Assembly: GCF_056746865.1 (NCBI RefSeq)
Contig: NZ_CM163382.1
DNA: 64,000 nt
Reading direction: 5' to 3' (one strand)
In this document: piece after piece, positions 3,709 to 28,599 of the stretch
Numbering within the stretch: the first letter of the stretch is position 1
Layout: every line of letters begins with the position of its first letter
Notes under the pieces: generated by a model
Told to the model about the DNA's origin: nothing
The model's database searches: none
The model's input: only the letters and a program-made list of their open reading frames with translations
Made by a program: the position numbers and the translations under genes

Positions 3709-3757
3709 GTTGTCTCTGTGAACTGAAGATTCTCTACAATGGTGTATAAAGTGTGAT

Positions 3758-8030: not shown

Positions 8031-9062
8031 TTACTCGACACCTACAATTTTACAAGCATATTTTTTAGCATTGAACGCCAACTCGCTACGTTTATGATCT
8101 GCACTAACAAGTAATGAAAGAGCTTTTATCCATATATGTGGGTCATTCTCCAGCAAGATTCCATTTACATTTTGTTCAATGAAGTCACTATATGGTACAC
8201 AATTACTATATAAACCTACAGCCCCCATTCTGACAAAATCATAAAATTTTACGGGGCCGCGAGCCGAATTAAAGTCAGAGTCAAGTAATGGTGCTAACCC
8301 GATATCCAGATGATGAGTCTTGGTATACGCAAGATAATTTTGCCAACTCATCGGATGCAGTACTGAAACTCTTGGTAGGTCACGATAATATTTATAAATA
8401 TCATGCTCGCCAAAAATTTCAAAGCTGGCACGGGGACATTCTCCCAATACCCCCTCTACGATTTGTCTCAACCAATATTTTTCTTCCCGATGAGAACTTG
8501 AGCCATGATAAGCGATTTTTACTGATCGATGTGTTTCAATGAGTGCCAGTGACGGTTTAGCAGAAACAATCTCCGGGTTAAGATGTGCATATTTATTAGC
8601 CAAATAGGCAGTTGAAACCCAAATGTTATCACAATATTGCGTAATCCATCGATGCTGAGCCGCCGACCTCCTTATTATCTTGGTACGATACTCTTTTGGT
8701 AACGTAGATAGTGCAGTCGGGTCAAACAGGTCGTCATCCATAAAATAAACAATTCGAGAAAACCTGTCGTTATATCTTTCTATGTGCTGTTGCCATTTTG
8801 GGGAGATGAATCTAATGACGACAAGGGCAGATCCTCTAGGAATAAATATATCAGTGGATGCTAATGTGTCGATAAAATGACATTCTGCATCAGGAAACCG
8901 ACTTATAATAGCCGATTCAAAATAGGCTAATGTAGGTGATTTTCCCTCATGTAATATAAACAATCGTTCAAAGTTAATCTCAGAGCTTTGCTGACTTCTA
9001 TAACTCTGTTTATTTAATTTACGATAAGGCTTAAATAGTTTCCTGCGAATTAATTCATCCAT
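8031..9062 (-). CDS. hypothetical capsule region-2 protein, possible glycosyltransferase
   Basis: 343-aa ORF inside the serotype region, overlapping the upstream gene by 13 nt. No motif I can name with confidence. Confidence 0.4.
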   Translation of the reverse strand: MDELIRRKLFKPYRKLNKQSYRSQQSSEINFERLFILHEGKSPTLAYFESAIISRFPDAECHFIDTLASTDIFIPRGSALVVIRFISPKWQQHIERYNDRFSRIVYFMDDDLFDPTALSTLPKEYRTKIIRRSAAQHRWITQYCDNIWVSTAYLANKYAHLNPEIVSAKPSLALIETHRSVKIAYHGSSSHREEKYWLRQIVEGVLGECPRASFEIFGEHDIYKYYRDLPRVSVLHPMSWQNYLAYTKTHHLDIGLAPLLDSDFNSARGPVKFYDFVRMGAVGLYSNCVPYSDFIEQNVNGILLENDPHIWIKALSLLVSADHKRSELAFNAKKYACKIVGVE

Positions 9063-11071: not shown

Positions 11072-11174
11072 AATATAACTTACAGTCCAAAGTAACAGAT
11101 GGGGGATACAGATCCTTATTAGCAGGCCTGTAGATAAGAGCAGAAATAAACACCAAAGCGCTTGCTCAATATAT

Positions 11175-12143
11175 TCAAACCATCCATTTCTTCATTTTTT
11201 TTTTGAACCAAGAACCAGTAGGAATAGGTTCAACTGCTGATAACTCAGTCAACTTCACACTTAATCGTTCCATTTCAGCTTTTACTTGTCCTGAGAATGC
11301 GGCAGCGAGAAGGCACTCTTCATCATTACGATCATGTGCCTTGAAATAATCTTTATGCTTCACTCGATTAGCAGTAGCAGCACTACCACGCAGATGCTTG
11401 CCCAACAAGAATTCCTCAAGTGATTTAACTGCATAGTGATTTACCCTGACACCGCTCCAAATCACTTCAGCACTAACTCCTTTACCATGCCTCGGGTGCA
11501 GAATCAAATCACGACCTAACACATCAATATATCGACCATAACGCAAATCAGCATAATGCGGATTATGAAAGCGGTTAACTCGTTCTGGTTTGACCACACT
11601 TTTGAAGTTATGATGAACGTTAAAGGGTTGCGGGGCACGATAGGTAAAACGTTCAATAACCAACCCCTCTTCAGCAAACAGTTCACCACTAGAACCAAAA
11701 TTTGCCCAATTCAATGCAATAGCGCTGACACTCTCATCCTGAAACTTTTCAGAAAAAAAATCTGACAATTTGGTATCCGATTCAAGTGGCAATAAAAATT
11801 CATCAGCATCTATAAATGCAAGCAGGTCTATGTCTCTGGGACAGCTACGTAAAATATGTTCATATGCAGGTAATTGTGGCTTTTGATTCACCAAAATCGG
11901 TTGATCGAACATCTTCACAATACCTAAGCGAGCGAGGGACAATAGCAACTCTCGACTACCATCACGACTACCATTATCTGCAATAATAAACCCATCAACA
12001 CCTAATACTCGATGGTAAGCAATCCATTCAAGTAAACTTGAATACTCATCCTTGATAATAGCGGCTATATAGAGTTTCAAATTATCATCCAGCAAAAATG
12101 TATCAATGCCGATACTATCGGCATTGATACTCAATTTTATCAT
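11175..12143 (-). CDS. glycosyltransferase (GT2/GT92-like fold)
   Basis: 322 aa with LLEWIAYHRVLGVDGFIIADNGSRDGS. Paralog of the N-terminal domain of the 409-aa protein at 15216..16445. Confidence 0.55.
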   Translation of the reverse strand: MIKLSINADSIGIDTFLLDDNLKLYIAAIIKDEYSSLLEWIAYHRVLGVDGFIIADNGSRDGSRELLLSLARLGIVKMFDQPILVNQKPQLPAYEHILRSCPRDIDLLAFIDADEFLLPLESDTKLSDFFSEKFQDESVSAIALNWANFGSSGELFAEEGLVIERFTYRAPQPFNVHHNFKSVVKPERVNRFHNPHYADLRYGRYIDVLGRDLILHPRHGKGVSAEVIWSGVRVNHYAVKSLEEFLLGKHLRGSAATANRVKHKDYFKAHDRNDEECLLAAAFSGQVKAEMERLSVKLTELSAVEPIPTGSWFKKKMKKWMV

Positions 12144-12586
12144 CAGGCAGGAGAAAAAAATAACCCGTCCAACCAGGTGATCACCCCATCTGATTCCAGC
12201 CCAATAATTATTTTGGTAGAAAATGGAATACTGATATCAAATCCGCACCGAAGTTTTTGATGTTTTTCAGGTGGTTGTTTTAGTATAGCTGAAATAACAT
12301 CAGGCCGCTTTGTATTGAAAGGAAAACTGTATGTCATATGATCAATTTTAACAGCAACATGGGAATCTGCTTCCCCTTCAGCCACTAACCACCCCCGAAG
12401 TACAATCCGGCCATTGACGATCTTTAGTGGTTGTTGTTCTGATGGCGAATCAATATTCCAATATAATTGACCGCCAGACTTGACGAGTGGCGATTTTGTG
12501 AGGGTATAAATAACAGCCATACGATTCCTTCTATTTGAAATATTGCTCAAATAACTCAGACTATCTCCAGATTGCCTTTCAAGCAA
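12143..12586 (-). CDS. hypothetical protein; stand-alone ~90-aa module shared with two neighbouring proteins
   Basis: 147-aa ORF. Shares IVLRGW...RPDV...CGF motifs with the C-terminus of the 409-aa protein and the N-terminus of the 426-aa protein. Confidence 0.4.
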   Translation of the reverse strand: MLERQSGDSLSYLSNISNRRNRMAVIYTLTKSPLVKSGGQLYWNIDSPSEQQPLKIVNGRIVLRGWLVAEGEADSHVAVKIDHMTYSFPFNTKRPDVISAILKQPPEKHQKLRCGFDISIPFSTKIIIGLESDGVITWLDGLFFSPA

Positions 12587-12713
12587 GATAATCCCAAGTT
12601 TTTATGGGATATACATAACTATGGATACAACCAAGAAAAATGATTTTGCCTCAATGGAAGAAATTACGGTAATAGAATTCCATTATCCCATTTACAATCC
12701 ACTGCTACGTTAT

Positions 12714-13880
12714 TTAATCAGCCCCAAAAAGATCTCTGGTATAAACCTTTTCGGCTACATCGACTAATTCAGCAGCCATGCGATTACAGAGAATAACATC
12801 GCTCAGCGCTTTAAACTCAGCCAGTTCCCGAATCACTCGGGAATTGAAGAATGTATCTTCATGAATAGTCGGTTCAAAGACCACTACCTCAATACCCTTG
12901 GCCTTAATACGCTTCATGACTCCCTGTATCGCAGAAGAGCGGAAATTATCTGAGCCAGCCTTCATCACCAAACGATGGATGCCCACCACCTTAGGTTTAC
13001 GACGCAATACGCTATCAGCAATAAAGTCTTTGCGAGTGCAATTAGCATCGACAATGGCGCGGATCAGATTGTTGGGTACCTTGTTGTAGTTGGCCAGCAA
13101 CTGCTTGGTGTCTTTGGGCAGGCAATAGCCACCATAACCAAATGAGGGGTTGTTATAATGGCTACCGATACGCGGATCCAAGCCAACCCCTTCGATAATC
13201 TGACGACTGTCCAAGTCATGCGACTGAGCATAGGTGTCCAACTCATTGAAATAGGCCACCCGCATTGCCAGATACGTATTAGCAAACAACTTGATGGCCT
13301 CCGCCTCGGTGCTGCCCGTTAGCAGTACCGGAATGTTCTGCTTGATCGCCCCTTCTTGCAACAATTCAGCAAATCGTTTGGCCCGCTCACTACGCTCACC
13401 CACCACAATACGGGAAGGGTATAGGTTGTCATACAGCGCCTTGCCCTCACGCAAGAACTCGGGAGAGAAGATCAGATTATCGGTGCCTAACTCACTACGC
13501 AGCCGCTCGGTAAAGCCTACCGGAATGGTAGACTTGATCACCATCACTGCATTAGGGTTGATACTGATCACATCGCGAATCACCCACTCGACTGAGTCGG
13601 TGTTAAAGTAGTTGGTCTCGGGATCATAATCGGTGGGGGTAGCAATAATCACAAATTCGGCCGCCTCATACGCCTCGAATTTATTCAGCGTCGCCTTAAG
13701 GTTCAGATGATTGTTGGCCAGATAGGCCTCCAGCTCTTTATCTGCAATGGGGGATTGACGGCGATTAATCAGTTCGACTTTCTCTGGTAATATATCCAGT
13801 GCAATTACCTGATGATGTTGAGCTAATAGCACTGCAATAGAAAGACCTACATAACCAGTTCCAGCTATAGCTATTTTCAT
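12714..13880 (-). CDS. ugd: UDP-glucose 6-dehydrogenase
   Basis: [24 protein letters not shown]-binding N-terminus and overall UDP-glucose/GDP-mannose dehydrogenase family features. Start placed at the internal Met (ATG at 13878-13880); the track start is at 13910. Confidence 0.85.
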
Positions 13881-13928
13881 GTTATAAAATACCTGCTCAA
13901 TTAAGTTCACATATATTTTTTACAAGTA

Positions 13929-15209
13929 TTATGAGGGTGCAGATTCAGTATTATATAATTTACTCATTTTTTCATGATAAAATAAAAGCGAAGGGCAAGA
14001 ATTATACTCAAAATTATTAATCTTTTTCTTGTATATTTTTCTAACAATTTCAGAAGTAAAACAGAAATTGTTTTTAGGTGGCTTCACAATAAATCTAGAA
14101 GCGACCTGAATAATTATTTTTGATGGCTTTTCATGAGCCACCACATCAAGATCCACACTCGCACCAGAAAATACATGGATTACTCTTTTATATTTATTTA
14201 CAAAATATGGAAGCATATTTATAGAATAAGAATCACCAAAAAAAACCACGACACTATCATCTATTTTGCGATTATTTTCAAATACTCTCACCCATCCTCT
14301 ATTATTAACCCCGTTATCATAAACAATATAATTATCAATACCAGAGAAATCAGCCTTCAATATATCCTGCGAAATCGGAGGGGTTGTCTTAATTCCTAAA
14401 TCGCCATAACTCCTTTTAATGTAAAAAGGGAAAATAGAATTATCGAGGACCGTGTTGTTTTTATTTAAGATATTATCTATATATTTAGCCACCTGCAATG
14501 CAGCAAAATCAGACCAGTGCGTATCAACTTTAGAATATGAGCTATCACCGATATCTCTTAATATATCTAAAGGATAAACTATATCAGTACAAATGGAGAG
14601 TAACTGTTCAACTGGTGTCTCTGGCGATTTTTTAAACGGATAGTATGATGACAATACATTCTCTTTGGCTGGAGCCAAACAAAAAACATATTCAATCCGT
14701 TGATCATTCATATATTTCCGAATAAAATCTAGATAGTTCTTCCAAACAGAAATATCATCATTTGTAATTTTTTTAATTCCAATAAACTGCTCTTTACTCT
14801 GATTGGTATCATGATCCAAGAATAAATACCCATTGTGTCCAAAAAGCACTTTTTGAGGAGGAGTTATATCTACTCTCGCTATTACATAATCAACATTATT
14901 AATAGTTGTTCCAATACTAAACGACTCCAAACTAGTAATAGCATAACTAAAACCACACATAGTATCACTAACATTTCCATTGAAATGTCTTACTACGTCT
15001 AATCTGGGTGTATTATAGTCAAGAATTAATTTCTCTCCATTCTTAACTATATATATATTATTCTGACAACCTTTATAGAGTAGCCATCCCGATAAATGAA
15101 TCGCAGAGCAATTTGACTTAAAATAACTACATGTCCGAGGACTATCAATTGAAAACTTGAGCCCGGTAATATCTGGTCTTATAACAGATAGTTTGATATC
15201 ATATTTCAT
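13929..15209 (-). CDS. putative SGNH/AlgJ-like polysaccharide-modifying acyltransferase with N-terminal shared module
   Basis: 426 aa. N-terminus carries the HLSGW...RLDV...CGF module. The body has DTHW and FFGDSYS motifs reminiscent of SGNH/AlgJ-type O-acyltransferases. Assignment by motif only. Confidence 0.45.
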   Translation of the reverse strand: MKYDIKLSVIRPDITGLKFSIDSPRTCSYFKSNCSAIHLSGWLLYKGCQNNIYIVKNGEKLILDYNTPRLDVVRHFNGNVSDTMCGFSYAITSLESFSIGTTINNVDYVIARVDITPPQKVLFGHNGYLFLDHDTNQSKEQFIGIKKITNDDISVWKNYLDFIRKYMNDQRIEYVFCLAPAKENVLSSYYPFKKSPETPVEQLLSICTDIVYPLDILRDIGDSSYSKVDTHWSDFAALQVAKYIDNILNKNNTVLDNSIFPFYIKRSYGDLGIKTTPPISQDILKADFSGIDNYIVYDNGVNNRGWVRVFENNRKIDDSVVVFFGDSYSINMLPYFVNKYKRVIHVFSGASVDLDVVAHEKPSKIIIQVASRFIVKPPKNNFCFTSEIVRKIYKKKINNFEYNSCPSLLFYHEKMSKLYNTESAPS

Positions 15210-15215
15210 TAAATT

Positions 15216-16445
15216 TTAAACCAATTTTGAAACTAATTCTTCATTGAGTGGAAATTCTAAACTAACTAATCCAGCCTGATTTAAAGTATATATCTGAACG
15301 CTTGAGATAAGTTGTGTAGGAAGCGACAACGAACATATAAACCCGCACCCAATTCCATTACCAATCCCAGCTTTTTCTACATCAGGCCGATCATAAAATG
15401 ATAGTGAGTCTGGGCGTATTAAAAAAGAGTTATTTATAACCATTACAATACTACTACATGGTTTTTTATCATTATCTACTGCCCAACCTTTTAGAACTAT
15501 AGCACGTCCATCTTTTTTAATTGTATCAATAAATCCAACCCCCATACTTTTAGTAGTCTTATAAAGTGGTTCACTTCTGCTTTCTATGAGCGGCTGATAT
15601 CCACAATCAAGCAATTTCTCATTAATGGTTGCGATTTGACATTTTACTTTTCTCAGAAACCATAATGGAATATGTTGCTCAATATTATTCAAATCATGAT
15701 TTTTAAAAAATTGCAGATTTCTACCGAGACTATTTTTTAGTGTTGTAGCTCTACCTCGAGCGACCTTTTTATTCAAGAATTCAGCCTTTGACTTAATTAC
15801 ATAATGATTAAGTCTGATAACTGACCAGTCAATCACCTCACTTATTCCATCATAACTATGATGTTCTTCTCCACTTGGCATAACAAATTTCTTATCTGAA
15901 TTAATAATAAAAGCATGGGGTGTTGGTCCTGCTTTGATAACATCAGAAACACGAACTATTGACTTATAATGCCTATTAACAGGATGCAGATCAGCAGCTC
16001 TCTTAACGAATCGTTCTATAACAAGACCGTCATCAGGTAAAATTGAATGAGATGAGCCATATACAGCCCAGTTGAGTGATATTGCACCAATCGCCTGATC
16101 ATTTAATAGCGGCATCAGTTTGTTTAAACCATCTTCATAGTCATTTGGTGAAATAAATTCATCTGCATCAATAAATGCAACCCATCTATCTTTATCAAGC
16201 ATTGACAATATTTTATTGTACGCCCCCAATTGTGGGGGAATACCATCTTGTGTCGGATAGTCAATCCTTTTGATAATATTCGCTTTATCTAGAAAATATA
16301 AAAGCTCACTACTTCCATCACTACTAATATTGTCGGCAATATATATATCATTAATGCCAAGAGCCATATGGTAAGCAATCCACTCAACAATGAATGGGTA
16401 TTCATTTTTTAAAATTGCACCTATTGAAAGCATCGCTGTTATCAC
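15216..16445 (-). CDS. glycosyltransferase (GT2/GT92-like) fused to C-terminal shared module
   Basis: 409 aa with VEWIAYHMALGINDIYIADNISSDGS at the N-terminus and IVLKGW...RPDV...CGF at the C-terminus. Confidence 0.55.
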   Translation of the reverse strand: MITAMLSIGAILKNEYPFIVEWIAYHMALGINDIYIADNISSDGSSELLYFLDKANIIKRIDYPTQDGIPPQLGAYNKILSMLDKDRWVAFIDADEFISPNDYEDGLNKLMPLLNDQAIGAISLNWAVYGSSHSILPDDGLVIERFVKRAADLHPVNRHYKSIVRVSDVIKAGPTPHAFIINSDKKFVMPSGEEHHSYDGISEVIDWSVIRLNHYVIKSKAEFLNKKVARGRATTLKNSLGRNLQFFKNHDLNNIEQHIPLWFLRKVKCQIATINEKLLDCGYQPLIESRSEPLYKTTKSMGVGFIDTIKKDGRAIVLKGWAVDNDKKPCSSIVMVINNSFLIRPDSLSFYDRPDVEKAGIGNGIGCGFICSLSLPTQLISSVQIYTLNQAGLVSLEFPLNEELVSKLV

Positions 16446-16456
16446 TCTACTTAAAA

Positions 16457-18874
16457 TTAAATGGAGAAGTCTTCTCTATCTTTAGATAGGTTTGGACTGT
16501 AGAAGGGATCGAGTTCGAGATGTTTACCCCATTTGCTTTTCATAAAGTTCACTTCCCTGGCAAATCTGGCTATTTTCTCCGGGGAATCTTCGGCACCTCG
16601 ACTAATTGATTCATAGTGGTAAAGCTCGGCATAAGGCGTCCAGAGATTACGGTACCCCGCTTCGCGTACTTTCAGACAGAAGTCCACATCATTAAAAGCA
16701 ACATGCAAATTCTCTTCATCCAACCCGGCAACTTCCTCATAAATATTTTTGCGAATAAGCAGGCAAGCAGCCGTGACGGCCGAGAGAGTTTGTGTCAACA
16801 ACAAACGGCTGAAATAACCCGGATGATGGCGAGGGTACTGTTTATGAGAGTGTCCCGCTACACCACCAATACCGAGAATAACTCCGCCATGTTGTAAAGT
16901 ATCATTACTGTAATAGAGCTTGGCCCCGACACAACCAATCTCTGGTCGCATGCAGTGACTCACCATCTCGGTCAGCCAATCCGGGTTGATTACCTCGACA
17001 TCATTATTGACCAAGCCGATAATGGCCCCCTTGGCGTGACGAACGCCAAAGTTGTTGATGGCCGAGTAGTTAAAGGGGTGGTCATAGCGCAATACTCTGA
17101 CCCGGCTGTCTTCCTGCTGGATCTGGGCAAAGAAATCGAGAGTCTCCTGCTCCACGCTGCCATTATCGAGAATCAGGATCTCGAAATGGGTATAGGTACT
17201 GCGATCGATGATGCTACGCACCGCAGTTTCGGTTAGAGCACGACGATCCCGAGTAGGAATAAGCAAACTAACCAGTGGGGCTGGTTCTGAAATAGGGTAA
17301 CGTACCCGATAGGTGTTGGGAACCAACCCCGCCTCAACCGTAACCTCAGGTTGCTGCTTAGAAAAATAGTCGCGTAGCGCTTTGATGCCAGCCTCCGTGG
17401 TGTAGCTCTTCTCGCCAGAAGCCAAAGCTGTAGAGCCCTCAATGGTACGCCAGTGGTAAAGCACACGGGGAATGTGAACTATCTGCTCTGCAGCTACATG
17501 AGGCAGACAACGCAGCAGCAGATCCTGATCCTGACTTCCTTCTACTCCCAAACGGAATCCCCCAATCTGTTGCAGCAGAGAGCGACGATAGACCCCGAGA
17601 TGCGAGACATAGTTTTGCGAAAAGAATAAATCTGGATTCCAATCGCTCTTGAAATGAGGATCAAAACGCTCACCGCGGGCATTAATTTTATCTTCGTCAC
17701 TGTAAAGGATCTGGGTATGAGGCTGCTCACAAATAGCCTGAGCCATAAATAGCATAGCATGCTCTGGCAACACATCATCATGATCCAACAGAGCTACGAA
17801 ATCCCCTTTTGCAATTTCGAGAGCACTGTTGGAAGCAGCCGAAATATGACCATTGTGCTTTCGGTAGACAACTTTGATTCGGCTATCCTTGGCCTCGTAT
17901 TCGCGCAGTACGCGTTGCACATGTTCTTTTGGCGAACGATCATCGGCAATACAGAGTTCCCAATGGGGATAGCTTTGAGCCAGGACAGAATCCAGACAGG
18001 CACGCAAGTAGATCTCCGCTGGATTATAAACAGGAATCACAATAGATATAACTGGAGGGTGAGTCATACTGGCAAGCATCAGACTCACCTCTTTGTTGCC
18101 AGGCAACGAAGGTAATTCCACCGTTTCTATCCATTCCTCATAACCGACAGAAAACGGGGTAACGCTGAACGTTTCGTTATAGAATGCCTGCAGGCGCTCT
18201 ATTGACATATCGCCATTGTCCATCAATATGGATTTTTTGATTTTTTCTAGCGGCATGTCACGATAGCTTTGGTGTTCTTTTTGAATGCGAGCCAATAGTG
18301 CAGACTCAACTACTTTCACATCAACAGCTGCTATTTCAAACTGATTAATTGCAAATGTTGCTGCCTGTTCTAATGGATCAAATCGTAATGCAACAAGAGG
18401 CGATTCCAGATAGAACAAACGACTGACGCTGACCGCTCGTTTATATGGCAACGTTACTGTTTCAAACTCATTGAACCCTTTACCTGTATCCAAATATAAC
18501 TTAGCTAATCCTTGCTTTGGTTGGCAATTAATAGAGATATTAAATTGATACCATCCCTTGCTAATATTTGAGAGCTGCTCCAAATCAATAATGAAAAATG
18601 GATCATTTCCCTCTGCAACCCAACTTTGTGAATTATCTATATCTATCGAGAGCTGATTTGTTGCCAGATAGGGCAGCACAACTGTATTTTGCATTTTACT
18701 CACTGCAGGAGAAACGTCCCATGCTTCGCATGGTTTCCTACCGAGTAACATCCCATAACGCTTAAAATGTTCTCTTGCTGACAACCCGGTCTGTTTCACA
18801 TCCAAATAGTTATGCAGATACCAATGTTCATCAAAGTGAGCTAGCAACTCGTCTTGGTGATTTTTAACCATCAC
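16457..18874 (-). CDS. dual-domain GT2 glycosyltransferase, candidate capsule polymerase
   Basis: 805 aa with two GT2 cores (ISIVIPVYNP...LLDHDDVL and VSLLIPTRDR...ILDNGSVEQE...NYSAINN...LVNNDVEV). N-terminal HWYLHNYLDVKQTGLSAREHFKRYG motif. Strong RBS (AGGGAG) before the start. Confidence 0.7.
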   Translation of the reverse strand: MMVKNHQDELLAHFDEHWYLHNYLDVKQTGLSAREHFKRYGMLLGRKPCEAWDVSPAVSKMQNTVVLPYLATNQLSIDIDNSQSWVAEGNDPFFIIDLEQLSNISKGWYQFNISINCQPKQGLAKLYLDTGKGFNEFETVTLPYKRAVSVSRLFYLESPLVALRFDPLEQAATFAINQFEIAAVDVKVVESALLARIQKEHQSYRDMPLEKIKKSILMDNGDMSIERLQAFYNETFSVTPFSVGYEEWIETVELPSLPGNKEVSLMLASMTHPPVISIVIPVYNPAEIYLRACLDSVLAQSYPHWELCIADDRSPKEHVQRVLREYEAKDSRIKVVYRKHNGHISAASNSALEIAKGDFVALLDHDDVLPEHAMLFMAQAICEQPHTQILYSDEDKINARGERFDPHFKSDWNPDLFFSQNYVSHLGVYRRSLLQQIGGFRLGVEGSQDQDLLLRCLPHVAAEQIVHIPRVLYHWRTIEGSTALASGEKSYTTEAGIKALRDYFSKQQPEVTVEAGLVPNTYRVRYPISEPAPLVSLLIPTRDRRALTETAVRSIIDRSTYTHFEILILDNGSVEQETLDFFAQIQQEDSRVRVLRYDHPFNYSAINNFGVRHAKGAIIGLVNNDVEVINPDWLTEMVSHCMRPEIGCVGAKLYYSNDTLQHGGVILGIGGVAGHSHKQYPRHHPGYFSRLLLTQTLSAVTAACLLIRKNIYEEVAGLDEENLHVAFNDVDFCLKVREAGYRNLWTPYAELYHYESISRGAEDSPEKIARFAREVNFMKSKWGKHLELDPFYSPNLSKDREDFSI

Positions 18875-18876
18875 TT

Positions 18877-21606
18877 TTATTCTCCCTTATTGACAGGCAG
18901 GCAACTGCGCTGCTCAAACTTCCCATACATAATGTAATGAAGCAGCGGATTAATGCCTCCTTGGGCCACATCCGGATAGGCTTGCAAATACCAGCGAGTA
19001 TCAAACTGCTCACTAGGGCTATAACCTTTATCCGCCCCCACGCTAATAAAATGCTCAAGAGCTGAGAGCCCAGTGTCTGCAACCTCTGGGTAGCGATGTT
19101 GATACCAGAGTTCATCAAACAATCCTGAAGCGGCAATACGCTCCGCGGCACTCTCTGTAGCTGTTGTTCTGGATGGAGTCTCCTTAAATGTTCTGCCAAG
19201 AGCACGAACTGGGGCTGTAATCTTCCAAGAGACGGTTCTCTTCAAATTCTGAGCGCGTTCTTTTGCTCTATTCAATTGCCGCTCTTTTTGTTTTAACTCA
19301 CAGCTAAGCTGCTCCATATGCCGCGTCATGACTGCCAACTCCTGGAAACGCTCTGCAATATTAGCTTCCAACCTTCCGTTGAGTGTGGTTAGTTCTCTTA
19401 CCTGGTCTTGCAGTACAGACTGCTGGCTCTGCAGCAAGGTTTGTTCCCGGATTAAGGCCTCCTTCTCTTCTTTCCAGGCTTGCTGCTGAGCTCTATATGT
19501 TTCATTGGTCTGTTGTTGTTCACTTGCTGCGCTAAGGAGTGCCTGATCACGTTCTTCCAGCCAACGGGTTAAGGTTGCAATCTCGCTGTACCGCTCATTG
19601 AGCACCGATTCCAACTCATCAAGTTGATGTTGCTTTTCTTTTGCTGCTGAGAGCAATGCAGACTGGGCCTGCTGAAGCGACTCTTGCTCAGCCCTTAACT
19701 GCTGCTCTACGCCAGACAACTTGGTGGTAATCAATTGTTTTTCAATCTCTAGTTCAGTGATAATCTGCTTGTGCTCTTCTAATAGACGTGTTAGAGCTAC
19801 CGTTTCACTAAAACGCTCGGCTAATGCCAAGTCCCGTTCGCTAATCTGTTGCTGATGTGTGGTCTGTTCAACTGCCAGTTGTTGTTGTAATGCTGATAGC
19901 GCCTCTGTGAGTTGCTTATACTCTGCTTGTTGAGCAGCCATTACGTCGCTTTGTGACGCAATATTAGACTCGCGCACTGCTATTAGTTGAGTCAGTTCAT
20001 CACATTGTTTAGAAGCCGCAGCCAAAGCAAGAGTTTGCTCATCTATGCTTTGCTGCAATGTTTGTTGCACAAGTTGCCCTTCTTCCAACTGTTGCTGTAG
20101 ATTTGCACTTACCTTTTTCAGTGCATCATATTCCAAGCCTAACGTATCGTGCTGTGCTTCCAGTAATCCATAAGCATGCTGCAACTGGTTTTTAGTTTGC
20201 TGCTCACCGTCAAGCTGCTGCTGCAATGCATTAGCCTGCTGTTGCAACAAGTTCACCATATTGTCTCGCTCGGCCAGTGTACGAACCTGTGTATCCTGGA
20301 CATGTAGCGCTTGTTCCAACTGAAGCTGTAATTCGGTAATTTGCCGCGAATGTTCGCTCAATGCTCTGTTACTCTTGCTGAGCGCGAGAGTAAGGTGAGA
20401 TGCACGCTGTGTTTCTTCACTCAATTGTAACGTCAGGGTATTGACCTGTTGCTCCAGTTGATGGCGAGCTTGCTCCTGGCTCGTGATGCGACTCTGTTGC
20501 TGCTCTAGTTGATGCAGAGCTGTATGCAACTCATCGTTGGCTTGTATTCGCTCCTGCGACCATACACTCAAGTTTGTTTGGGCCTCATTGAGCTGTTCTT
20601 GCAATAATGCCACCTCAGATGTCAGCGAATTGATATGTTGCTGGGCAAAAGATAGCTCATCAGATTGCACTTGAGCATGTGCAAGCTGCTTTTCCATTTC
20701 TAATATGCTGTTATGTTGTGCAGTAATGCGCTCGGCAAGACGCCCTCTTTCCAATGCCTGCTGTTCTACCAATAGCTGCCGTTCAGCCTGAATGTCATCT
20801 TGTTGTGTAGACAACTGACGTTTTAACAGGGAATTCTCCCAACTCTCGCTACAAGATTTCCCCAAACGACAAAAGATGTCTTGGACTTGTTTGGTTACAC
20901 GAGCATTTTCTGAGATTTTATACAAATTATTAAGTTCTGGAGATTGTTCACACCCCACACCAACTATCCCTAGTCCATGCCCATGAGCGAACTCAAAGTG
21001 TGGATATTGTCGTTTTAATTCATCCAAAAGCTGAAATACGCCAAAACCACGTTCCCTAACATTGGTATCATGCATAATGACCACAGCCCTTTCAGAAAGC
21101 TTTGGCAACCAGCTTTCAAAATCATGGCGTACCGCTTCGAACGTATGCAAACCATCAATATGAAGCAGATCAATGCTACCTTGTGAAAAATGCTCTAACG
21201 CTTGGTCAAATGTACTGCGAATGAGAGTAGAAAAACCTGAATAGTGCTGTTGATTATATTCTGATACTTGCCTGTAAACTTCTTCGCCATACAGCCCCGC
21301 ATGTTCATCTCCCCCCCAGGTATCAACGGCAAAGCAGCATGTTTCTAAATCTAGTTTAGAGACTGCCTGGCAGAATGAGAAATAAGAACTTCCATAATGA
21401 GTTCCCAGCTCAACAATATTTCTTGGCCGCAGTGTGTCAACTAACCAGAAAGCAAAAGGAATATGTTCTAGCCAAGCAGATTGTGCAAGATATGTAGGAC
21501 GCCAAAAAAGAGATGATTTGAAAATGAAATTCAATTCCCCGCCAATATCAGTGATGGGATATAACTCACGATTTTCTACTAACTGACTAATTTTTTGACT
21601 ATCCAT
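18877..21606 (-). CDS. class I SAM-dependent methyltransferase-like domain fused to a ~550-aa coiled coil and C-terminal WY repeats
   Basis: 909 aa. N-terminus has NIVELGTHYGSS...LLHIDGLHTFEAV...VIMHDT (Methyltransf_24-like). Residues ~255-810 are Q/E/L-rich heptad-like sequence with three ER[FY]xE[IL]A..TR..EE repeats. C-terminus has two W-Y-x3-Y-P-[ED]-V-A...G...H[FY] repeats. Confidence 0.65.
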   Translation of the reverse strand: MDSQKISQLVENRELYPITDIGGELNFIFKSSLFWRPTYLAQSAWLEHIPFAFWLVDTLRPRNIVELGTHYGSSYFSFCQAVSKLDLETCCFAVDTWGGDEHAGLYGEEVYRQVSEYNQQHYSGFSTLIRSTFDQALEHFSQGSIDLLHIDGLHTFEAVRHDFESWLPKLSERAVVIMHDTNVRERGFGVFQLLDELKRQYPHFEFAHGHGLGIVGVGCEQSPELNNLYKISENARVTKQVQDIFCRLGKSCSESWENSLLKRQLSTQQDDIQAERQLLVEQQALERGRLAERITAQHNSILEMEKQLAHAQVQSDELSFAQQHINSLTSEVALLQEQLNEAQTNLSVWSQERIQANDELHTALHQLEQQQSRITSQEQARHQLEQQVNTLTLQLSEETQRASHLTLALSKSNRALSEHSRQITELQLQLEQALHVQDTQVRTLAERDNMVNLLQQQANALQQQLDGEQQTKNQLQHAYGLLEAQHDTLGLEYDALKKVSANLQQQLEEGQLVQQTLQQSIDEQTLALAAASKQCDELTQLIAVRESNIASQSDVMAAQQAEYKQLTEALSALQQQLAVEQTTHQQQISERDLALAERFSETVALTRLLEEHKQIITELEIEKQLITTKLSGVEQQLRAEQESLQQAQSALLSAAKEKQHQLDELESVLNERYSEIATLTRWLEERDQALLSAASEQQQTNETYRAQQQAWKEEKEALIREQTLLQSQQSVLQDQVRELTTLNGRLEANIAERFQELAVMTRHMEQLSCELKQKERQLNRAKERAQNLKRTVSWKITAPVRALGRTFKETPSRTTATESAAERIAASGLFDELWYQHRYPEVADTGLSALEHFISVGADKGYSPSEQFDTRWYLQAYPDVAQGGINPLLHYIMYGKFEQRSCLPVNKGE

Positions 21607-21746
21607 TGAGGAAAACTCACATGTATTTATAGAATTAAATCAAGAAACCTGAAAATACCTATAGTGCGGTAACTTATTAACTAACATTAAAATATTAACA
21701 ATACACTTGGAAATATTAGTTAAAAATAAATCATTATGATTTCTCA

Positions 21747-23006
21747 TCAATCCTGGTGCTCACGCAAAGTTGCCAGCCCCATAATAATAAGACCATAGAA
21801 CAAGCAAAGTAATACACCCACAGTCGCAAGATTATAGAATCGCCGTGGATATTCGGCATCTTCCGCTAAAGTTGGTTGGGTAATAACCAATAGGTGCTTA
21901 AGTTTACGATATGCCTCAACCCGCGTCTGCTCTAAGCTGATAAGGCCAGTTTTGTAGAGATCCGCTGCCAAGGTTGCCTGCGTTTGCACATCCATGTAAC
22001 CGGCGGTGATTTCATTCATGGCATCGTTATCTTGACCAGTCAGCTTAGCACGCTCCTGTTCAAGCTGCTTGGTTAGGGCGTCAACTCGGCTCTGTAATGA
22101 GACTACGGCCGGTGCGGTTTCCTTCATATAGCTGCGCAGTTGTTTTAGCTCCGCCTGTTGACGCACCAGCTCTCCTTCAATCTGGCTGACCACTCCTAAG
22201 CGTGCGCTGCTGGTAGATTCAGGGCTGAGAAGTTGGTGGCTATTCTGAAATGCTAATACTTTAGCTTTTTCATCCTGTAAGCGTTGATATGCTCTATTTA
22301 CTTCTTTTTCAACAAAGGCCAATTGTTCGAGCGCAACCTGATGACCTAATTTGTTAATAAAACGCTCCGATTCTTTGAGCATTAACTCAACAACTCGCTG
22401 ACCGTATTGGGGATCAAATGTCTGCAACTCAACGGTAAGTACTCCTGATAATTCATCAAGATGTAACGTCAAATGTTTGCGGTAATAATCAAGAAAATCC
22501 TCCCTACTGACTCCCTTATGCAACCGCGAGAAATAATCTGCACTATCACTCTGGAAATGTGCTTTAAGTGCAAGTTCTTTGTCCAACTTGGCCAGCATAT
22601 CCCATGACTTCATATAATCCTGAACGAGTAATATATCCTGATGATTACTACCACCGATCCCTAACATTGATAACGCATCAGGCAACATTTTAACTTGATC
22701 GGCTTGTTTAATCATTAATTCAGCCCGGCTCACATAACGATCGGAAGCAATGAAGCCAAAATAGAGCACTGCGATAGAAAAGCAGATAACTACCCAAAGA
22801 AAACTGCCTAGCTGTAAACTTTTCTTCCACGAGCGGTGTACAATTTGATATCCTCTCGAATCAATCAAAAATAGTTTTGGATTATTGCTCAGTTTTCTTA
22901 ACTTTCGCGCAAGGCGAGATATTGAGGATGAAGAATTCGGAGATGTCATAATCAGTTGCTGCTCAAAGTGACTGGTAAATTTTGATGGCATCATCAATAT
23001 TATCAA
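21747..23006 (-). CDS. kpsE: KpsE-like capsule export inner-membrane protein (Wzz/PCP-3 type)
   Basis: 419-aa track ORF with one N-terminal transmembrane segment, a long periplasmic coiled region and a C-terminal TM (GVLLCLFYGLIIMGLATL). Track start overlaps kpsT by 44 nt; a start at the internal Met (22949) is more likely. Confidence 0.7.
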   Translation of the reverse strand: MIILMMPSKFTSHFEQQLIMTSPNSSSSISRLARKLRKLSNNPKLFLIDSRGYQIVHRSWKKSLQLGSFLWVVICFSIAVLYFGFIASDRYVSRAELMIKQADQVKMLPDALSMLGIGGSNHQDILLVQDYMKSWDMLAKLDKELALKAHFQSDSADYFSRLHKGVSREDFLDYYRKHLTLHLDELSGVLTVELQTFDPQYGQRVVELMLKESERFINKLGHQVALEQLAFVEKEVNRAYQRLQDEKAKVLAFQNSHQLLSPESTSSARLGVVSQIEGELVRQQAELKQLRSYMKETAPAVVSLQSRVDALTKQLEQERAKLTGQDNDAMNEITAGYMDVQTQATLAADLYKTGLISLEQTRVEAYRKLKHLLVITQPTLAEDAEYPRRFYNLATVGVLLCLFYGLIIMGLATLREHQD

Positions 23007-23613
23007 AAACTTCTAATTTACCATCACGTAACAAGATGCCCATATCGCATTGTTGTCGTAGATTTTTCATATCATGTGAAACCATAATCAAACTAGCTGT
23101 TTCTCGCTTTTTGTTAAATACATCAATACATTTTTGTTTAAAACGTGCATCACCTACTGAGGTAATTTCATCGGTAAGATATATATCAAAATCAAAAGCC
23201 ATACTAACAGCAAAAGAAAATTTTGATTTCATGCCGCTAGAGTATGTTTTAATAGGCAACTCATAATGTTGTCCAATTTCAGAAAACTCTTTAACCCACT
23301 CTTCTACGGTGCTTGTATCGCGTACACCATGAATGCGGCAAACAAATCGCGTGTTTTCACGACCAGTCATACTACCTTGAAATCCCCCACCTAGTGCTAG
23401 AGGCCAAGATACTCGGCAGAGACGAGTTACTTTCCCCCTGTTAGGCGTATCCATCCCTCCTAACAAACGTAACAAAGTAGATTTTCCTGCTCCATTGATA
23501 CCTAGAATACCTATATTACGGTCCCTTGGTAGCTCAATATTTACATTCCTCAGGACATAATTTCGTCCAAATTTAGTCGGATAATATTTTGATACATTAT
23601 CAAGAATAATCAT
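22963..23613 (-). CDS. kpsT: capsule ABC transporter ATP-binding protein
   Basis: 216 aa, Walker A GINGAGKSTLL, ABC signature region. Adjacent to the ABC-2 permease. Confidence 0.85.
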   Translation of the reverse strand: MIILDNVSKYYPTKFGRNYVLRNVNIELPRDRNIGILGINGAGKSTLLRLLGGMDTPNRGKVTRLCRVSWPLALGGGFQGSMTGRENTRFVCRIHGVRDTSTVEEWVKEFSEIGQHYELPIKTYSSGMKSKFSFAVSMAFDFDIYLTDEITSVGDARFKQKCIDVFNKKRETASLIMVSHDMKNLRQQCDMGILLRDGKLEVFDNIDDAIKIYQSL

Positions 23614-23624
23614 TTTTCTTAACG

Positions 23625-24425
23625 CTAACTAGCAATCAATTGGCGATGCCGTAATCGGTAACAACTCATAGCAAAAGTGAGCAATAATAAGGTGACAACC
23701 GACAGATACGCCCAACTTACATCAGGACTACGATAACCAGATATCCATGCCCTTCGGATTAGTTCTACAGCATGCACAAGTGGATTCCATAAAAACCAAT
23801 GCTGATATTGAGGGGGAATAGTAGCAAGAGGAAACATAACACAAGAGATAAACATCAAAGGCATCATTAACAAGCTAAGAAATTTATCTGCCTCTTTCGC
23901 TAAGTTACAAATAACACAAAATACAATACCAAGAGAAAAAGAAAACAGCATCAGAAGAGAATAACCAAGGATCACTTGCAATGGATCCGCAGGTATTGCA
24001 TCAAAGCCAAACCACAATAATCCTAGTACTAGGATGATACCGACAATCATGCCCACCATTGTTTCTAGCATAAAACGTGCTATAAAAGTTGCAAAAGGAG
24101 TCACTTGTCTATAACAAAAAAGTCCCATATTAGCATTGACAGCAGATTTCAACTGAGTCACAACTTTATTGAAAAACATGAAAGGTAAATAACCAGCAGT
24201 AATAAAAACCTGGGCTGGGACACCACCAAAGCCACTTTGGCTTCTCATCCCAAATACTACACTGAACAGGCTAATCATTAATAATGGGTCAAGTAATGCC
24301 CAAGCATAACCTAGTCGGTAATTACCAAATCTTGTTTTTAGCTCACGAATTAATAAGCCAAATACTACATCACGTAATACTTGCAAAGAAGTGCGTGGAG
24401 TTTGACTAATAATGGGTTTGTCCAT
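23625..24425 (-). CDS. kpsM: capsule ABC transporter permease (ABC-2 family)
   Basis: 266 aa, six predicted TM helices, ABC-2 type. Immediately upstream of kpsT. Confidence 0.8.
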   Translation of the reverse strand: MDKPIISQTPRTSLQVLRDVVFGLLIRELKTRFGNYRLGYAWALLDPLLMISLFSVVFGMRSQSGFGGVPAQVFITAGYLPFMFFNKVVTQLKSAVNANMGLFCYRQVTPFATFIARFMLETMVGMIVGIILVLGLLWFGFDAIPADPLQVILGYSLLMLFSFSLGIVFCVICNLAKEADKFLSLLMMPLMFISCVMFPLATIPPQYQHWFLWNPLVHAVELIRRAWISGYRSPDVSWAYLSVVTLLLLTFAMSCYRLRHRQLIAS

Positions 24426-24491
24426 TAATACTTACCCAAATAATCGGCTCATTATAGCAACGAGCCTCCGATTAAAATTTAAAACACTCAA

Positions 24492-26237
24492 TCATTTAAT
24501 AGCAACGTTAGCAGCTACAGCGATTTGATAAATAATTTGTGTGATATCTTTAAATGATTGCATGGTTTTGCTATCAACCTGAGGTAGAACCAATATCTGA
24601 TCCCCCGGTTGTACTTTACCTTGCCCTTTAAATTCTACAAGACCATTTGCATGTACAATAGCAATTCGCTTGTCGTTAGCTCGCTCAGTAAAACCTCCGG
24701 CCCATGCAACATAATCATCCAAATTAGCATCGGCATTATATACTACTGCTTGTGGCATCAACACTTCACCACCCACTTGAATAAGATCAGTCTTATTTGG
24801 AATAACTATTTGATCGCCTTGTTCTAATTGGATATTGGCAATAACACCTTTATCTGCAACTACTACTTTACCAAGCGGTTGAACTTTACGAGCCTTTTCA
24901 ACAAACTGCATCACTAACTCTGCTTCTTTAGCACGTATATTCGCCTCACCATCAGATCGCGCGGGTGTGGTAAATACACTACGTTCCAAGCGGTTTAGAG
25001 ATTCATCCAGCATCTCTTTTTGTCTTGCAGCCACACTCTTTCGTATCAGATAAATTGATTGATAATCCGCAAGCTCTGGGTCAATAGGGATATAGTTCAA
25101 TAAATCATGCAATTTAGTTTGCTTACGAACCGTGAAATATGACGGTCCCATATAACTGCCTGATACTTGTATATCATATACTTGTGCATGCATGTCATCA
25201 TTAAAAAGTACTTTGTCACCGTCTTTAAGTTGAAGACGTGTAAAATCTTTATACGGCAAGTAGACGGAAAACGGGCCGCTTTCCCTGTCGCCAATCACAC
25301 CGACATGACTGACTTTTGCGAGAGGAAGTGCATAATTCACCAATTCAGAGCCTAATGCATTGCGCTGGGTAAGCTCAAATCGGAATGGGTTTCGAACCTT
25401 TCCCGCAACATTGATCATTGGACCTTGTTGCTCAACTAAAATCACATCTTGATCTTTTAATGCCAGCTTCGGGAGTTTCCCATACCGTATGAAATCATAA
25501 AGATCAATTTGCTGTATTACTCTATTTTGTCGTAACACCTTAATTTTTCGATAACTTCCACGGTCAGAATCTATTCCACCGGCACGTTTTAAAAAATACA
25601 ATATACTATCAGAAGATTGTCCTGCATACTGCCCAGGACGAATTACAGGCCCCGTAACGAATACACTTACAGGGGTTGCAGTCAAAAGATTTACGTAAGT
25701 ATTTACATTATTGGTAAATACATCACCGATCTTACTTGCCACCAACTGATTAACTTGGCTTGCAGGAACATTTTTTACATTTATTGGACCTACATCAGGT
25801 ATGAAAATATTTCCTTGATTATCTACCGTAACCACATTAGAGAAATTGACCGCTCCCCAAATCCAGATATTTAACTTATCCCCAGGAGCAATCAAATAAT
25901 TATCGCTTAAGCCGTCACTCCTTTCTGTTTCATAGCCTCCGGCAAATAAATTAGCACCATACGGAGGAGGTAAGCCTGCTTCAGATTGCGGCAGTAATTT
26001 TCGTACATCTGACTCTCCTGGAAGCAACATCCCATTACGATTCTGTTGTGTGAAGCTTCCTGTTGTGGAGGTTGTATTAGGCTGTCCAGTGATGTCTGCT
26101 AGCATTTTCCGAGACTCTCCTGTCGAGGCAGCAAGATCATAATCTAAATGTGAACCATTAGATTGATTTTGCTCTATTGCGGCGAATGCTGATGCAGAAA
26201 TAAGAAAGAGAAGAGTGCTAAGTTGCGAAATTTTCAT
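24492..26237 (-). CDS. kpsD: KpsD-like periplasmic/outer-membrane capsule export protein
   Basis: 581 aa with signal peptide (MKISQLSTLLFLISASAFA). Central region resembles KpsD (GDKLNIWIWGA...GNIFIPDVGPINV...VFVTGPVIRPGQY...RGSY). Confidence 0.75.
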   Translation of the reverse strand: MKISQLSTLLFLISASAFAAIEQNQSNGSHLDYDLAASTGESRKMLADITGQPNTTSTTGSFTQQNRNGMLLPGESDVRKLLPQSEAGLPPPYGANLFAGGYETERSDGLSDNYLIAPGDKLNIWIWGAVNFSNVVTVDNQGNIFIPDVGPINVKNVPASQVNQLVASKIGDVFTNNVNTYVNLLTATPVSVFVTGPVIRPGQYAGQSSDSILYFLKRAGGIDSDRGSYRKIKVLRQNRVIQQIDLYDFIRYGKLPKLALKDQDVILVEQQGPMINVAGKVRNPFRFELTQRNALGSELVNYALPLAKVSHVGVIGDRESGPFSVYLPYKDFTRLQLKDGDKVLFNDDMHAQVYDIQVSGSYMGPSYFTVRKQTKLHDLLNYIPIDPELADYQSIYLIRKSVAARQKEMLDESLNRLERSVFTTPARSDGEANIRAKEAELVMQFVEKARKVQPLGKVVVADKGVIANIQLEQGDQIVIPNKTDLIQVGGEVLMPQAVVYNADANLDDYVAWAGGFTERANDKRIAIVHANGLVEFKGQGKVQPGDQILVLPQVDSKTMQSFKDITQIIYQIAVAANVAIK

Positions 26238-26263
26238 TATTTTCTAACCGTCTACCTTCAACT

Positions 26264-26635
26264 TTATTCTTCAATAAGCAAAGTGCTAACTGATGTTTGT
26301 TCCAACTGAGGTACTTGATACCACTTGTTATTCTCTTTACATACAACACTTCGCTTTGAATAATTTTTATTCATCGCATAACTTAACTTTATGCATTGAG
26401 AACCTAAAGCCGATATATACCTTTCCTCAATAGTATAAATTACGCCATTTTTGTTGAATGTCGTGCCTTGATCTTGGTTATTTAATGGTGCCTGCAAATC
26501 TTCAGGAATAAGAGAATAAGAAGAATTAATCGCTGTTACCAATGGACGAGAGGCTTCAACTTGTTTTGGATCATGTGCGCAGGCCGTTATAAAAAAGATT
26601 AGTGAAAATAATAAAATACGATGTGCAAGGTGCAT
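26264..26635 (-). CDS. putative small lipoprotein
   Basis: 123 aa, signal peptide plus lipobox (FFITAC). Sits between the JUMPstart element and kpsD. No assignable family. Confidence 0.4.
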   Translation of the reverse strand: MHLAHRILLFSLIFFITACAHDPKQVEASRPLVTAINSSYSLIPEDLQAPLNNQDQGTTFNKNGVIYTIEERYISALGSQCIKLSYAMNKNYSKRSVVCKENNKWYQVPQLEQTSVSTLLIEE

Positions 26636-27564
26636 TTTAAAACGTTATCCAAAAGTTGATAGTATGTAAAACAATTACCTTCTATTATTGATACTCTGAC
26701 AGATATCAATAATAGCCCATAAATATAAGATATTTAAAATTATAACCACACAAATTAATCATAGATGTTGCTAGTATAAGATTGACTTTAGTCAACTGGT
26801 GTTTACATCATCTGTTTATAACTAATTACGAATATATCCTTTATCTTTTGGATATGTACTACATATGCAACACACATCCCTAAAAATATTATTTTTATGG
26901 CCCCGTATATTGCTATCTTTTTTTTATAAAATTTAATAATAACAACCATATGGAAGAGAAAATCCCTCTTATACATAAAGAGGGATCAATTAAATAAATT
27001 TGTTTTGTAATGACTCAGTAAGGCATAGACGTTTTCATAAATTCTTAAATTACTATCCCCAAAAATCTAAGTCCTGAAAAACTTTAACACTCTAATATTT
27101 TCATGAGCCGTTCAGCACACCCTCAACTTCGATAAAAAATGCTAACTAGTAAATAATTGTCGCAATAATAATAGTCGTACTTTATCAATAACAGATAAAC
27201 AAAAATAATAAAAAAGAGGGGAGATACACTTGCGATAGAATGGCGGCTTCTTGCCCCCCTTTGCCCGGTCCTGACTAGCATGGCTGGAGTCAGTGTCAGG
27301 CCACGACCATGCTCATCATGGAAGCAGCTTTTGTAGTACACTTCGCAGCTTATTTTCCTGGAACGAAATGTCTGGCATCGTGGTGCATAACATAACCCCC
27401 AATGCCCAGCAGATGCACAGAAGGTTCTAGAATCGCCCACTGATATCCCATACAAAATTTACCAAAACGTGTTCGTATTTCTCGTATAAATAATGTCTCT
27501 ATGGTGACGTTCTAGACTTCAAACCCACTTTTTGAATTTGATGATGTGCTCCTAATCTCTTCAG

Positions 27565-27604
27565 GAATGCTACCGCCCCTGGCTTTACAGCTACCAATAC
27601 ACTG
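27565..27604 (-). promoter_or_regulatory. JUMPstart element containing an ops (GGCGGTAG) site, RfaH-dependent antitermination signal for the kps transcript
   Basis: Minus-strand sequence cagtgtattggtagctgtaaagccaggggcggtagcattc closely matches the 39-bp JUMPstart consensus (CAGTG..TGGTAGCTGT.AAGCCAGGGGCGGTAGC). Correct orientation, ~1.3 kb upstream of kpsD. Confidence 0.75.
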
Positions 27605-28062
27605 GAGGTATACTTATCTGCAACTGGATGAACTAGATATACTTGAGCAAACATTTCATAAGCTCGACGAACAGTTTTCGTAGAAATTATTTTCCTTATT
27701 TAAAATTCACTTATTGATTATCTCTAGGAATTTTACTAATTTCCAAGTCACATAAAATACAGATCACACAAGAATTATCCTATATGCTTTAACCTATCAA
27801 TTATTACTCAATGATTCATTACAACTATTAATAATCATAATGCGTCAAAACACTTAAGCAACTTTACAGTCTGAGAAAGGTGTCGATTCACAAGGACTGC
27901 ATAGTGAAAAACGAATTCCTACAGTATTATCGAACATTCCGTGGTGGTCTGGAGGGAGATAACCCTTGCTACATCGGAACTCAGCCCGGTGAGCGGGTTT
28001 GACAGTTCCGCACTCACCTTTGGGCTAAGGTTATCAGGTGGGGTTTAAGGGGATGGCAATAC

Positions 28063-28599
28063 TTACCCCCGTCCAAACTCCAGCCGCTGCACGTTCACCA
28101 TTCCAGCCTTTTCATCTGCACTGACATCAATTTGTGTCACCCGCAGCGCATACTTTTCATCCAGCGCGTTTAACCAGTTCAGCAGATCATTAAATACCAC
28201 AGGATCTATCCAGACCTGGATATTCTCCCCGCGCTCGGCTATCCGCTTAATGACCACTGAATGCGCCGAAGCACTGTCACTGATGACCCGCGATACCTGC
28301 GCAGGCGTTGTTGTGGCAGATTTTCGCGCTGCAATAATATCCGGCGCGGCGTTCTTCAGTCGGGTGTTCATCGCCACCAGCTGCTGCAATATTGTCTCCT
28401 GTTGCTCAATCCGTTCGCTCAACGGCTGCCAGATGAGGACGTAATATCCGACGCTAAACAGGAACACCACCGCTGCCAGTAACATGCCCTTTTCACGCGG
28501 AGAACGCCCCGCCAGGTGTTGTGCCAGCCAGTGTTCGCCACGGCTTAACTGGCGTTCACGCCATTGCTGAAAATAGTGAATAAATTTATCGCGTAACAT
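28063..28599 (-). CDS. gspM: type II secretion system protein M
   Basis: 178 aa, single N-terminal TM. Last gene of a colinear gspC-M run. Confidence 0.8.
   Translation of the reverse strand: MLRDKFIHYFQQWRERQLSRGEHWLAQHLAGRSPREKGMLLAAVVFLFSVGYYVLIWQPLSERIEQQETILQQLVAMNTRLKNAAPDIIAARKSATTTPAQVSRVISDSASAHSVVIKRIAERGENIQVWIDPVVFNDLLNWLNALDEKYALRVTQIDVSADEKAGMVNVQRLEFGRG

Follow-up and report, generated by a model that had tools for sequence, protein, structure and literature searches.

The 64-kb window (the whole stretch of 64,000 nucleotides that was analysed) carries a full-length JUMPstart element with an ops core ahead of an E. coli group 3 capsule cluster. We put the probability at roughly 90% that this is a working JUMPstart/ops element of the group 3 kps operon, which loads RfaH for one long transcript. 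For a near-identical locus, that of M12 (K96) (PMC13410964; preprint 10.1101/2025.09.19.677278), the element, the long leader and the RfaH dependence are already in print, and the reading is thus correct but not new.

Rfam RF01707 matched the element along the entire model (positions 1-38 of 38) at minus-strand 27604..27566, with a score of 54.4 bits against a gathering score of 35 and an E value of 1.1e-9 for the 64-kb window. The minus-strand sequence of these 39 nt was CAGTGTATTGGTAGCTGTAAAGCCAGGGGCGGTAGCATT, and the ops core GGCGGTAG was located at 27577..27570. The initial annotation had placed a JUMPstart with an ops core on the kps coding strand, about 1.3 kb 5' of kpsD, and this was borne out in each respect. 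The kps coding strand is the minus strand of the window, and the 3' end of the JUMPstart was 1,328 nt from the kpsD ATG at 26237 (1,328-1,333 nt, or about 1.33 kb). The element lies on the non-template strand, the same strand as kpsD to kpsS, and it is non-coding, since the adjoining kpsM' is a pseudogene. In six related loci, the JUMPstart scored 53.6-58.5 bits with the same model.

The 8-mer GGCGGTAG was within chance when taken alone, with 2 matches in the 64-kb window against 1.12 expected, and it was dropped as stand-alone evidence. The second exact match, at 52477..52470 on the minus strand, is on the coding strand of glcD, inside the gene, with no JUMPstart around it; it was taken as a chance occurrence and not as an ops element. 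Unlike the 8-mer, the 39-nt element is far beyond chance, and the significance is carried by it. In CFT073, 34 of the 42 potential ops sites fell inside coding sequences, and RfaH ChIP signal was obtained at only the 8 leader sites (PMC9765446).

The ops 12-mer GGCGGTAGCATT was identical in all group 3 loci compared. Judged against the published analysis of ops (PMC5995543), the bases contacted by RfaH (C3-G8) and the pause base T11 were intact. In that study, substitutions at G4, G5, A7 and G8 abolished the recruitment of RfaH, those at C3 and T6 reduced it about three-fold, and G5 and T6 were the bases read specifically by RfaH (PMC5995543). The 12-mer departed from the consensus GGCGGTAGCGTG at position 10 (A) and position 12 (T). 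G12 contributes to the ops pause, and the G12C substitution removed the pause but not the recruitment (PMC5995543). A functional group 2 kps ops element, GGCGGTAGCGTA, and a second group 2 one, GGCGGTAGCATA, were also off-consensus at position 12, and among the loci compared, positions 10 and 12 were the sole differences between the group 2 and group 3 ops 12-mers.

Next to yghD lies an E. coli group 3 capsule cluster, with kpsD-M-T-E, a serotype-specific region and kpsC-S on one strand (Table 1). Region 1 had the order kpsD-kpsM-kpsT-kpsE on one strand, and kpsC-kpsS came last, distal to the serotype-specific genes and also on that strand, as is the rule for group 3. All genes from 26635 to base 1 share the strand of the element. 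In addition, kpsF and kpsU were absent from the scanned ORFs of 1..27600 (the rmlBDAC ORFs and the small ORF at 18864..19205 excepted) and from the PGAP annotation of two homologous loci. On the 5' side, the end of yghD was 458 nt from the JUMPstart, on the same strand. The assignment of kpsC/kpsS to 11071..8031 was rejected; the ORFs in this stretch encode a family 2 glycosyltransferase and an unassigned protein, and kpsC was placed by Pfam at 3708..1561.

Table 1. Features of the capsule locus and its leader, from the 5' neighbour to the window edge
Feature	Coordinates	Strand	Evidence
yghD (gspM), last gene of the type II secretion operon, 5' neighbour	28063..28599	-	ORF; annotated yghD in homologous loci
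PR3-homologous intergenic block: candidate promoter and first ~75-110 nt of the leader	27634..28062	-	blastn
Candidate sigma-70 promoter, TTGGAA-N18-GATAAT	27717..27746	-	9/12 consensus matches; same site as proposed in M12
JUMPstart element	27566..27604	-	Rfam RF01707, 54.4 bits
ops 12-mer GGCGGTAGCATT	27566..27577	-	RNA polymerase pause and RfaH recruitment site by sequence
kpsM', decayed group 2 kpsM fragment, ~residues 2-64	27357..27540	-	tblastn vs EV36 KpsM
IS110-family (ISEc20-like) transposase fragment, 32 codons, antisense to the operon	27211..27300	+	blastn, tblastn
AT-rich group 3-specific spacer, GC 0.27	26636..27210	-	Composition
Terminator-like hairpin, 10-bp stem then U-rich tail	26961..26987	-	Scan; RNA fold -13.8 kcal/mol, z -2.4
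123-aa ORF, putative lipoprotein, orphan	26264..26635	-	Signal peptide MHLAHRILLFSLIFFITA|C, lipobox ITAC, Cys19
kpsD (group 3), polysaccharide export protein	24492..26237	-	Pfam Poly_export and SLBB; NCBIfam export-protein families
kpsM	24425..23625	-	NCBIfam KpsM family, 1.3e-46
kpsT	23613..22963	-	NCBIfam ABC ATPase
kpsE, start codon uncertain	23006..21747	-	NCBIfam BexC/CtrB/KpsE family, 496.9 bits vs cut-off 437.5
Serotype-specific region 2: glycosyltransferases, ugd, rmlBDAC	3758..21606	-	
kpsC	3708..1561	-	Pfam Capsule_synth, two stretches, 3.7e-75
kpsS start, cut by the window edge	398..1	-	Collinear with M12 kpsC-gap-kpsS

The centre of region 2 (21745..11056) was unlike the K96 cluster of M12, with only ugd alike (81%), and the flanks of region 2 were 98.8-99.6% identical to M12. 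The centre thus differs while the flanks are nearly identical, which indicates that the window encodes another K type on the same scaffold. Among the products encoded in the centre are a protein of 909 aa that has a methyltransferase domain and a glycosyltransferase of 805 aa in which two stretches were matched. Moreover, a perfect palindrome with a 14-bp stem, GTATCAATGCCGAT...ATCGGCATTGATAC, was observed at 12100-12130; it is terminator-like on both strands and lies within the ORF 11175..12143, just 3' of the junction (12143) of two region 2 ORFs. Two non-coding gaps were also seen within the presumed single operon, both AT-rich with a GC of 0.28: one of 1,163 bp between kpsC and kpsS (398-1560), which is also found in M12, and one of 724 bp before rmlB (7307..8030). 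Elsewhere in the window, a full-length match to the C0719 small RNA was found at 46839-47060 on the plus strand (Rfam RF00117, 299 bits).

The leader stretch of 930 nt from the JUMPstart to the small ORF is a composite of relics and AT-rich spacer. It consists of 209 nt holding a group 2 kpsM relic (GC 0.42), 146 nt holding an IS110-family transposase fragment (GC 0.51) and 575 nt that are truly AT-rich (GC 0.27). About 900 bp of AT-rich leader had been described in the initial annotation; the length was right, but the uniform AT-richness was not, as only the 575-nt part has this composition. The relic kpsM' showed 72% identity to EV36 KpsM over 54 residues (tblastn) and is dead: its ATG is lost, there is an in-frame TAG at codon 9, and deletions of 9 nt and 2 nt have occurred. 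At the same position in related genomes, PGAP calls a frameshifted partial "ABC transporter permease". The transposase fragment showed 75-80% identity to IS110-family elements (blastn), the match being within the ISEc20 transposase coding sequence, and 63% identity over residues 256-287 at the protein level (tblastn, E 4e-6). It sits where the group 2 relic meets the group 3-specific DNA.

The terminator-like hairpin in the AT-rich part is a candidate only, since terminator-like sites were no commoner than in shuffled sequences, in the leader and in the whole operon. The small lipoprotein ORF that had been expected between the element and kpsD was present, with its lipobox ITAC and Cys19. No Pfam or NCBIfam match was found for this 123-aa ORF, and among 5.8 billion proteins its homologues were near-identical ones only. 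It falls within the interval whose deletion left M12 capsulated. For comparison, the haemolysin (hly) operon is likewise RfaH-dependent with its ops far from the gene start; in CFT073 some 600 nt separate ops from the initial start codon (PMC9765446). The spacing is larger in our locus (930 nt to the small ORF and 1,333 nt to kpsD), and the leader here is a mosaic of relics, whereas that of hly is a dedicated leader.

The ancestry of the element was clear from alignments with group 2 loci. In blastn, the window from 28100 to 27634 was 88.2-88.7% identical to the DNA that follows yghD in two group 2 strains, EV36 (K1) and an ST131 strain. At the breakpoint at 27633, the group 2 leader has a further 532 bp (EV36, K1 type) or 648 bp (ST131 type) not found here. 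Homology to group 2 then resumed at 27632 and stopped at 27357, with 83% identity (blastn). On the group 2 side, this segment takes in the final ~96 nt of the leader, JUMPstart included, together with roughly 64 codons from the start of kpsM. The alignments thus indicate that the JUMPstart was inherited from group 2, together with the PR3-derived promoter block.

The region has in common with group 2 (K1/K5) PR3 the promoter block (88%) and the JUMPstart with about 64 kpsM codons (83%), but it differs in several ways. The ops of group 2 PR3 is about 700 nt from the start, while here it is about 105-140 nt from the likely start; ops is nearer to the likely start in group 3 because the 532 or 648 bp of the untranslated region (UTR) are absent. 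The first real gene follows ops by 28 nt in group 2 PR3 and by 0.93-1.33 kb here, where kpsM is dead. The group 2 PR3 transcript covers regions 3 and 2 only, whereas the group 3 transcript would span the whole cluster. Neither the PR3-type 5' UTR of ~700-820 nt with a downstream H-NS site nor an intact kpsM ~28 nt 3' of ops was found. With this UTR segment missing, the region is of PR3 descent but does not qualify as a PR3 region as understood for group 2. In group 2, RfaH-dependent read-through into the serotype-specific genes from an ops 28 bp 5' of kpsM is established (group 2 literature).

On the operon strand 5' of the JUMPstart, a consensus scan found TTGGAA-N18-GATAAT as the only promoter-like site. 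This site at 27746..27717 is a candidate only, since sigma-70-like sites were no commoner than in shuffles of the leader and of the whole operon. Promoter-like hexamers also occurred nearer to kpsD in the same scan, for example at 26738..26709. In K5, the PR3 start was mapped 741 nt 5' of kpsM (group 2 literature). If K5 has a K1-type leader, this start would correspond to about 27746, with TATTTT at 27759..27754; given the two length classes of group 2 leaders, it would otherwise lie just beyond the deletion point. The likeliest start of transcription is some 105-140 nt 5' of the JUMPstart. An OxyR site has been proposed in M12; in the window, a search with the Toledano-type consensus gave at best 12/20 matching positions, at 27797..27761, which is no better than in shuffled sequence. 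It was also observed that OxyR control has been proposed to set group 3 apart from group 2, yet the block is 88% identical to group 2 PR3.

M12 has the same arrangement of yghD, distal promoter, ops, kpsM', hypothetical ORF and kpsD. Over 28100..26200, the window and the M12-derived genome shared 98.6% identity, with no difference in the ops 12-mer or the promoter hexamers; the M12 JUMPstart differs in one base, with G instead of A just 5' of ops. A kpsD::lacZ fusion of 1,950 nt was active in M12 and became inactive when the distal -35/-10 region was removed (PMC13410964); this region maps to 27746..27717 of the window. Furthermore, transposon insertions across the yghD-kpsD interval were enriched among capsule-negative cells, and deletion from just after ops to near kpsD left the capsule intact (PMC13410964). 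The rfaH deletion mutant had no capsule and was serum-sensitive, and it could be complemented (PMC13410964). Taken together, the M12 data indicate that the distal promoter and rfaH are needed and that most of the leader is dispensable, which supports the RfaH reading for this locus. The long RfaH-dependent leader and the single antiterminated transcript predicted by the initial annotation are therefore in line with the M12 work, with the one-transcript part suggested by gene order and phenotype.

The M12 paper places the -35 at 1641, the -10 at 1617 and ops at 1473, which correspond to 27746, 27722 and 27577 in the window. The distances to the annotated kpsD ATG in the M12-derived genome were 1508, 1484 and 1339, respectively. 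The offset of 132-134 nt equals the position of Met45 of the kpsD ORF, which indicates that the kpsD start used in the M12 paper is Met45. A start at Met45 skips the signal-peptide-like N-terminus MKISQLSTLLFLISASAFA (window 26105-26237). In addition, the M12 leader deletion (-1450..-50), when counted from Met45, would remove the annotated kpsD ATG, yet the mutant was reported to be capsulated.

From the observed element, its strand, its ancestry and the gene order, we infer the exact start of transcription, the pause and RfaH loading at this ops and the single transcript as follows. Transcription would start about 105-140 nt 5' of the JUMPstart, within the promoter block inherited from group 2 PR3. 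At ops, GGCGGTAG of the non-template strand would fold into a small hairpin recognised by RfaH, while the polymerase pauses at U11. RfaH would bind there and stay bound to the polymerase, which, so modified, would resist pausing, Rho and H-NS/StpA roadblocks. The polymerase could then cross the untranslated leader of ~1.33 kb with kpsM', the IS110 scrap, the AT-rich DNA with its terminator-like hairpin and the small lipoprotein ORF. Finally, it would transcribe the co-directional, AT-rich capsule genes over at least 26 kb, including the non-coding gaps of 0.7 kb and 1.2 kb. In previous studies, RfaH was found to suppress pausing and to exclude NusG and thereby Rho, and in CFT073 it carries RNA polymerase through H-NS/StpA filaments on the AT-rich kps DNA (PMC9765446). 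These known actions would fit a GC-poor, horizontally acquired operon of 27 kb with large untranslated stretches.

Three other explanations were weighed against a working element. The element lies in an obvious relic, beside the decayed kpsM', and its conservation alone is no proof of function. The JUMPstart might accordingly be only a fossil, brought along with the dead kpsM' when group 3 genes replaced the group 2 cluster, with promoters nearer to kpsD doing the work. The loss of the kpsM' start codon, its stop and frameshifts, the hexamers such as those at 26738..26709 and the IS element between ops and kpsD in about one-third of group 3 genomes would all agree with this. It is nevertheless very unlikely, because the M12 fusion was inactive without the distal promoter, insertions in the interval and deletion of rfaH abolished the capsule (PMC13410964), and the ops 12-mer was identical in all group 3 loci compared while the leader around it suffered insertions and deletions.

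The distal promoter itself may be questioned, as read-through from the type II secretion operon (yghJ...gspC-M/yghD) could supply much of the transcription at ops, the local promoter not being the main source. The short distance of 458 nt from yghD on the same strand is compatible with this, and no terminator-like site was detected by the scan in this interval. Read-through may contribute, but as the main source it was considered unlikely: the M12 reporter plasmid, which held the intergenic region only, was active unless the -35/-10 was removed (PMC13410964), the block has a homologue in group 2, PR3, that was mapped as a promoter independently, and in some genomes an IS3 lies between yghD and the promoter. 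As for RfaH, the loss of capsule in the rfaH deletion mutant could in principle be indirect, for instance through an altered LPS core that affects capsule retention, with this ops not loading RfaH. For group 3 strains, the literature consulted yielded neither a mapped transcription start nor measurements of transcript levels, and no ops point mutant that would speak against such an effect. An indirect effect is very unlikely: the bases contacted by RfaH are preserved, on the non-template strand of a leader, and the homologous ops of group 2 shows, in CFT073, a direct ChIP signal for RfaH that extends across kps (PMC9765446). A working element that loads RfaH is thus the preferred explanation.

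The distribution of the leader was studied in complete genomes. Of 5,426 complete E. coli genomes, 99 had the group 3-specific leader, in each case chromosomal. No plasmid-borne leader was found in the plasmid collection, in which the single full match was a 4.9-Mb chromosome record. The leader was split in two places in 36 of the 99 genomes (BLAST), and every split locus inspected had an IS element; in group 3 genomes other than this one, the stretch from ops to kpsD is a hot-spot for IS insertion. IS5 was inserted at CTAG 27278..27275 in many human isolates, IS3 at 27225..27222 in one leader variant, and IS5 in place of 27512..27096 in another. In the variants inspected, the IS insertions between ops and kpsD were all on the strand opposite to the operon. 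On the 5' side of ops, IS3 at ~27960 and IS1B at ~27840 were found in some genomes, and an ISKpn13 parts the -35 from the -10 (27728-27721). These IS variants, at positions corresponding to 27096-27278 and 27721-27960 of the window, came from five loci, and the ops 12-mer was unchanged in every IS-variant locus inspected. Natural variants with a deletion in the leader body had an intact ops as well. This mirrors the deletion result in M12, with an apparently expendable leader body and a promoter-ops module that is kept.

The general architecture has been known since 1998-1999, and the ops, the distal promoter and the need for rfaH were shown experimentally in 2025-2026. Russo et al. reportedly described in 1998 that, at its boundary, the K54 cluster carries a group II kpsM that is truncated but has its 5' regulatory sequence, and that an IS110-like sequence comes next. 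Clarke et al. reportedly found in 1999 that an rfaH mutation abolishes the K10 capsule and that an IS3 element flanks the cluster. The truncated kpsM, the IS110-like sequence and the flanking IS3, as reported for K54 and K10, were seen in the window or in related genomes. What is added here is modest: the exact map of the mosaic leader, the recognition of the promoter block as group 2 PR3 with a UTR deletion, and the frequent IS insertions in the leader with ops kept.

The UTR deletion may also bear on thermoregulation. A downstream H-NS site at +141 to +219 of K5 PR3 is essential for shut-off at 20 °C (group 2 literature), and group 3 capsules, unlike those of group 2, are not temperature-regulated (literature). 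Judging from the alignment, the segment missing at 27633 should include the +141..+219 site, with either leader class and any candidate start. Loss of this UTR segment with its H-NS site could possibly explain why group 3 capsules are made at all temperatures, and IS elements in the leader may be tolerated owing to the RfaH that is loaded at ops. Both ideas are tentative and rather doubtful at this stage, the former because it comes from an alignment and a review. Neither was found in the accessible literature, although older papers may discuss the former.

Group 3 capsules (K96, K54, K10 and relatives) shield extraintestinal pathogenic E. coli from complement. The JUMPstart/ops element is a useful marker when group 3 loci are annotated. 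Moreover, the ops element and RfaH form the gate for expressing the whole operon of ~27 kb, which makes them a plausible anti-virulence target.
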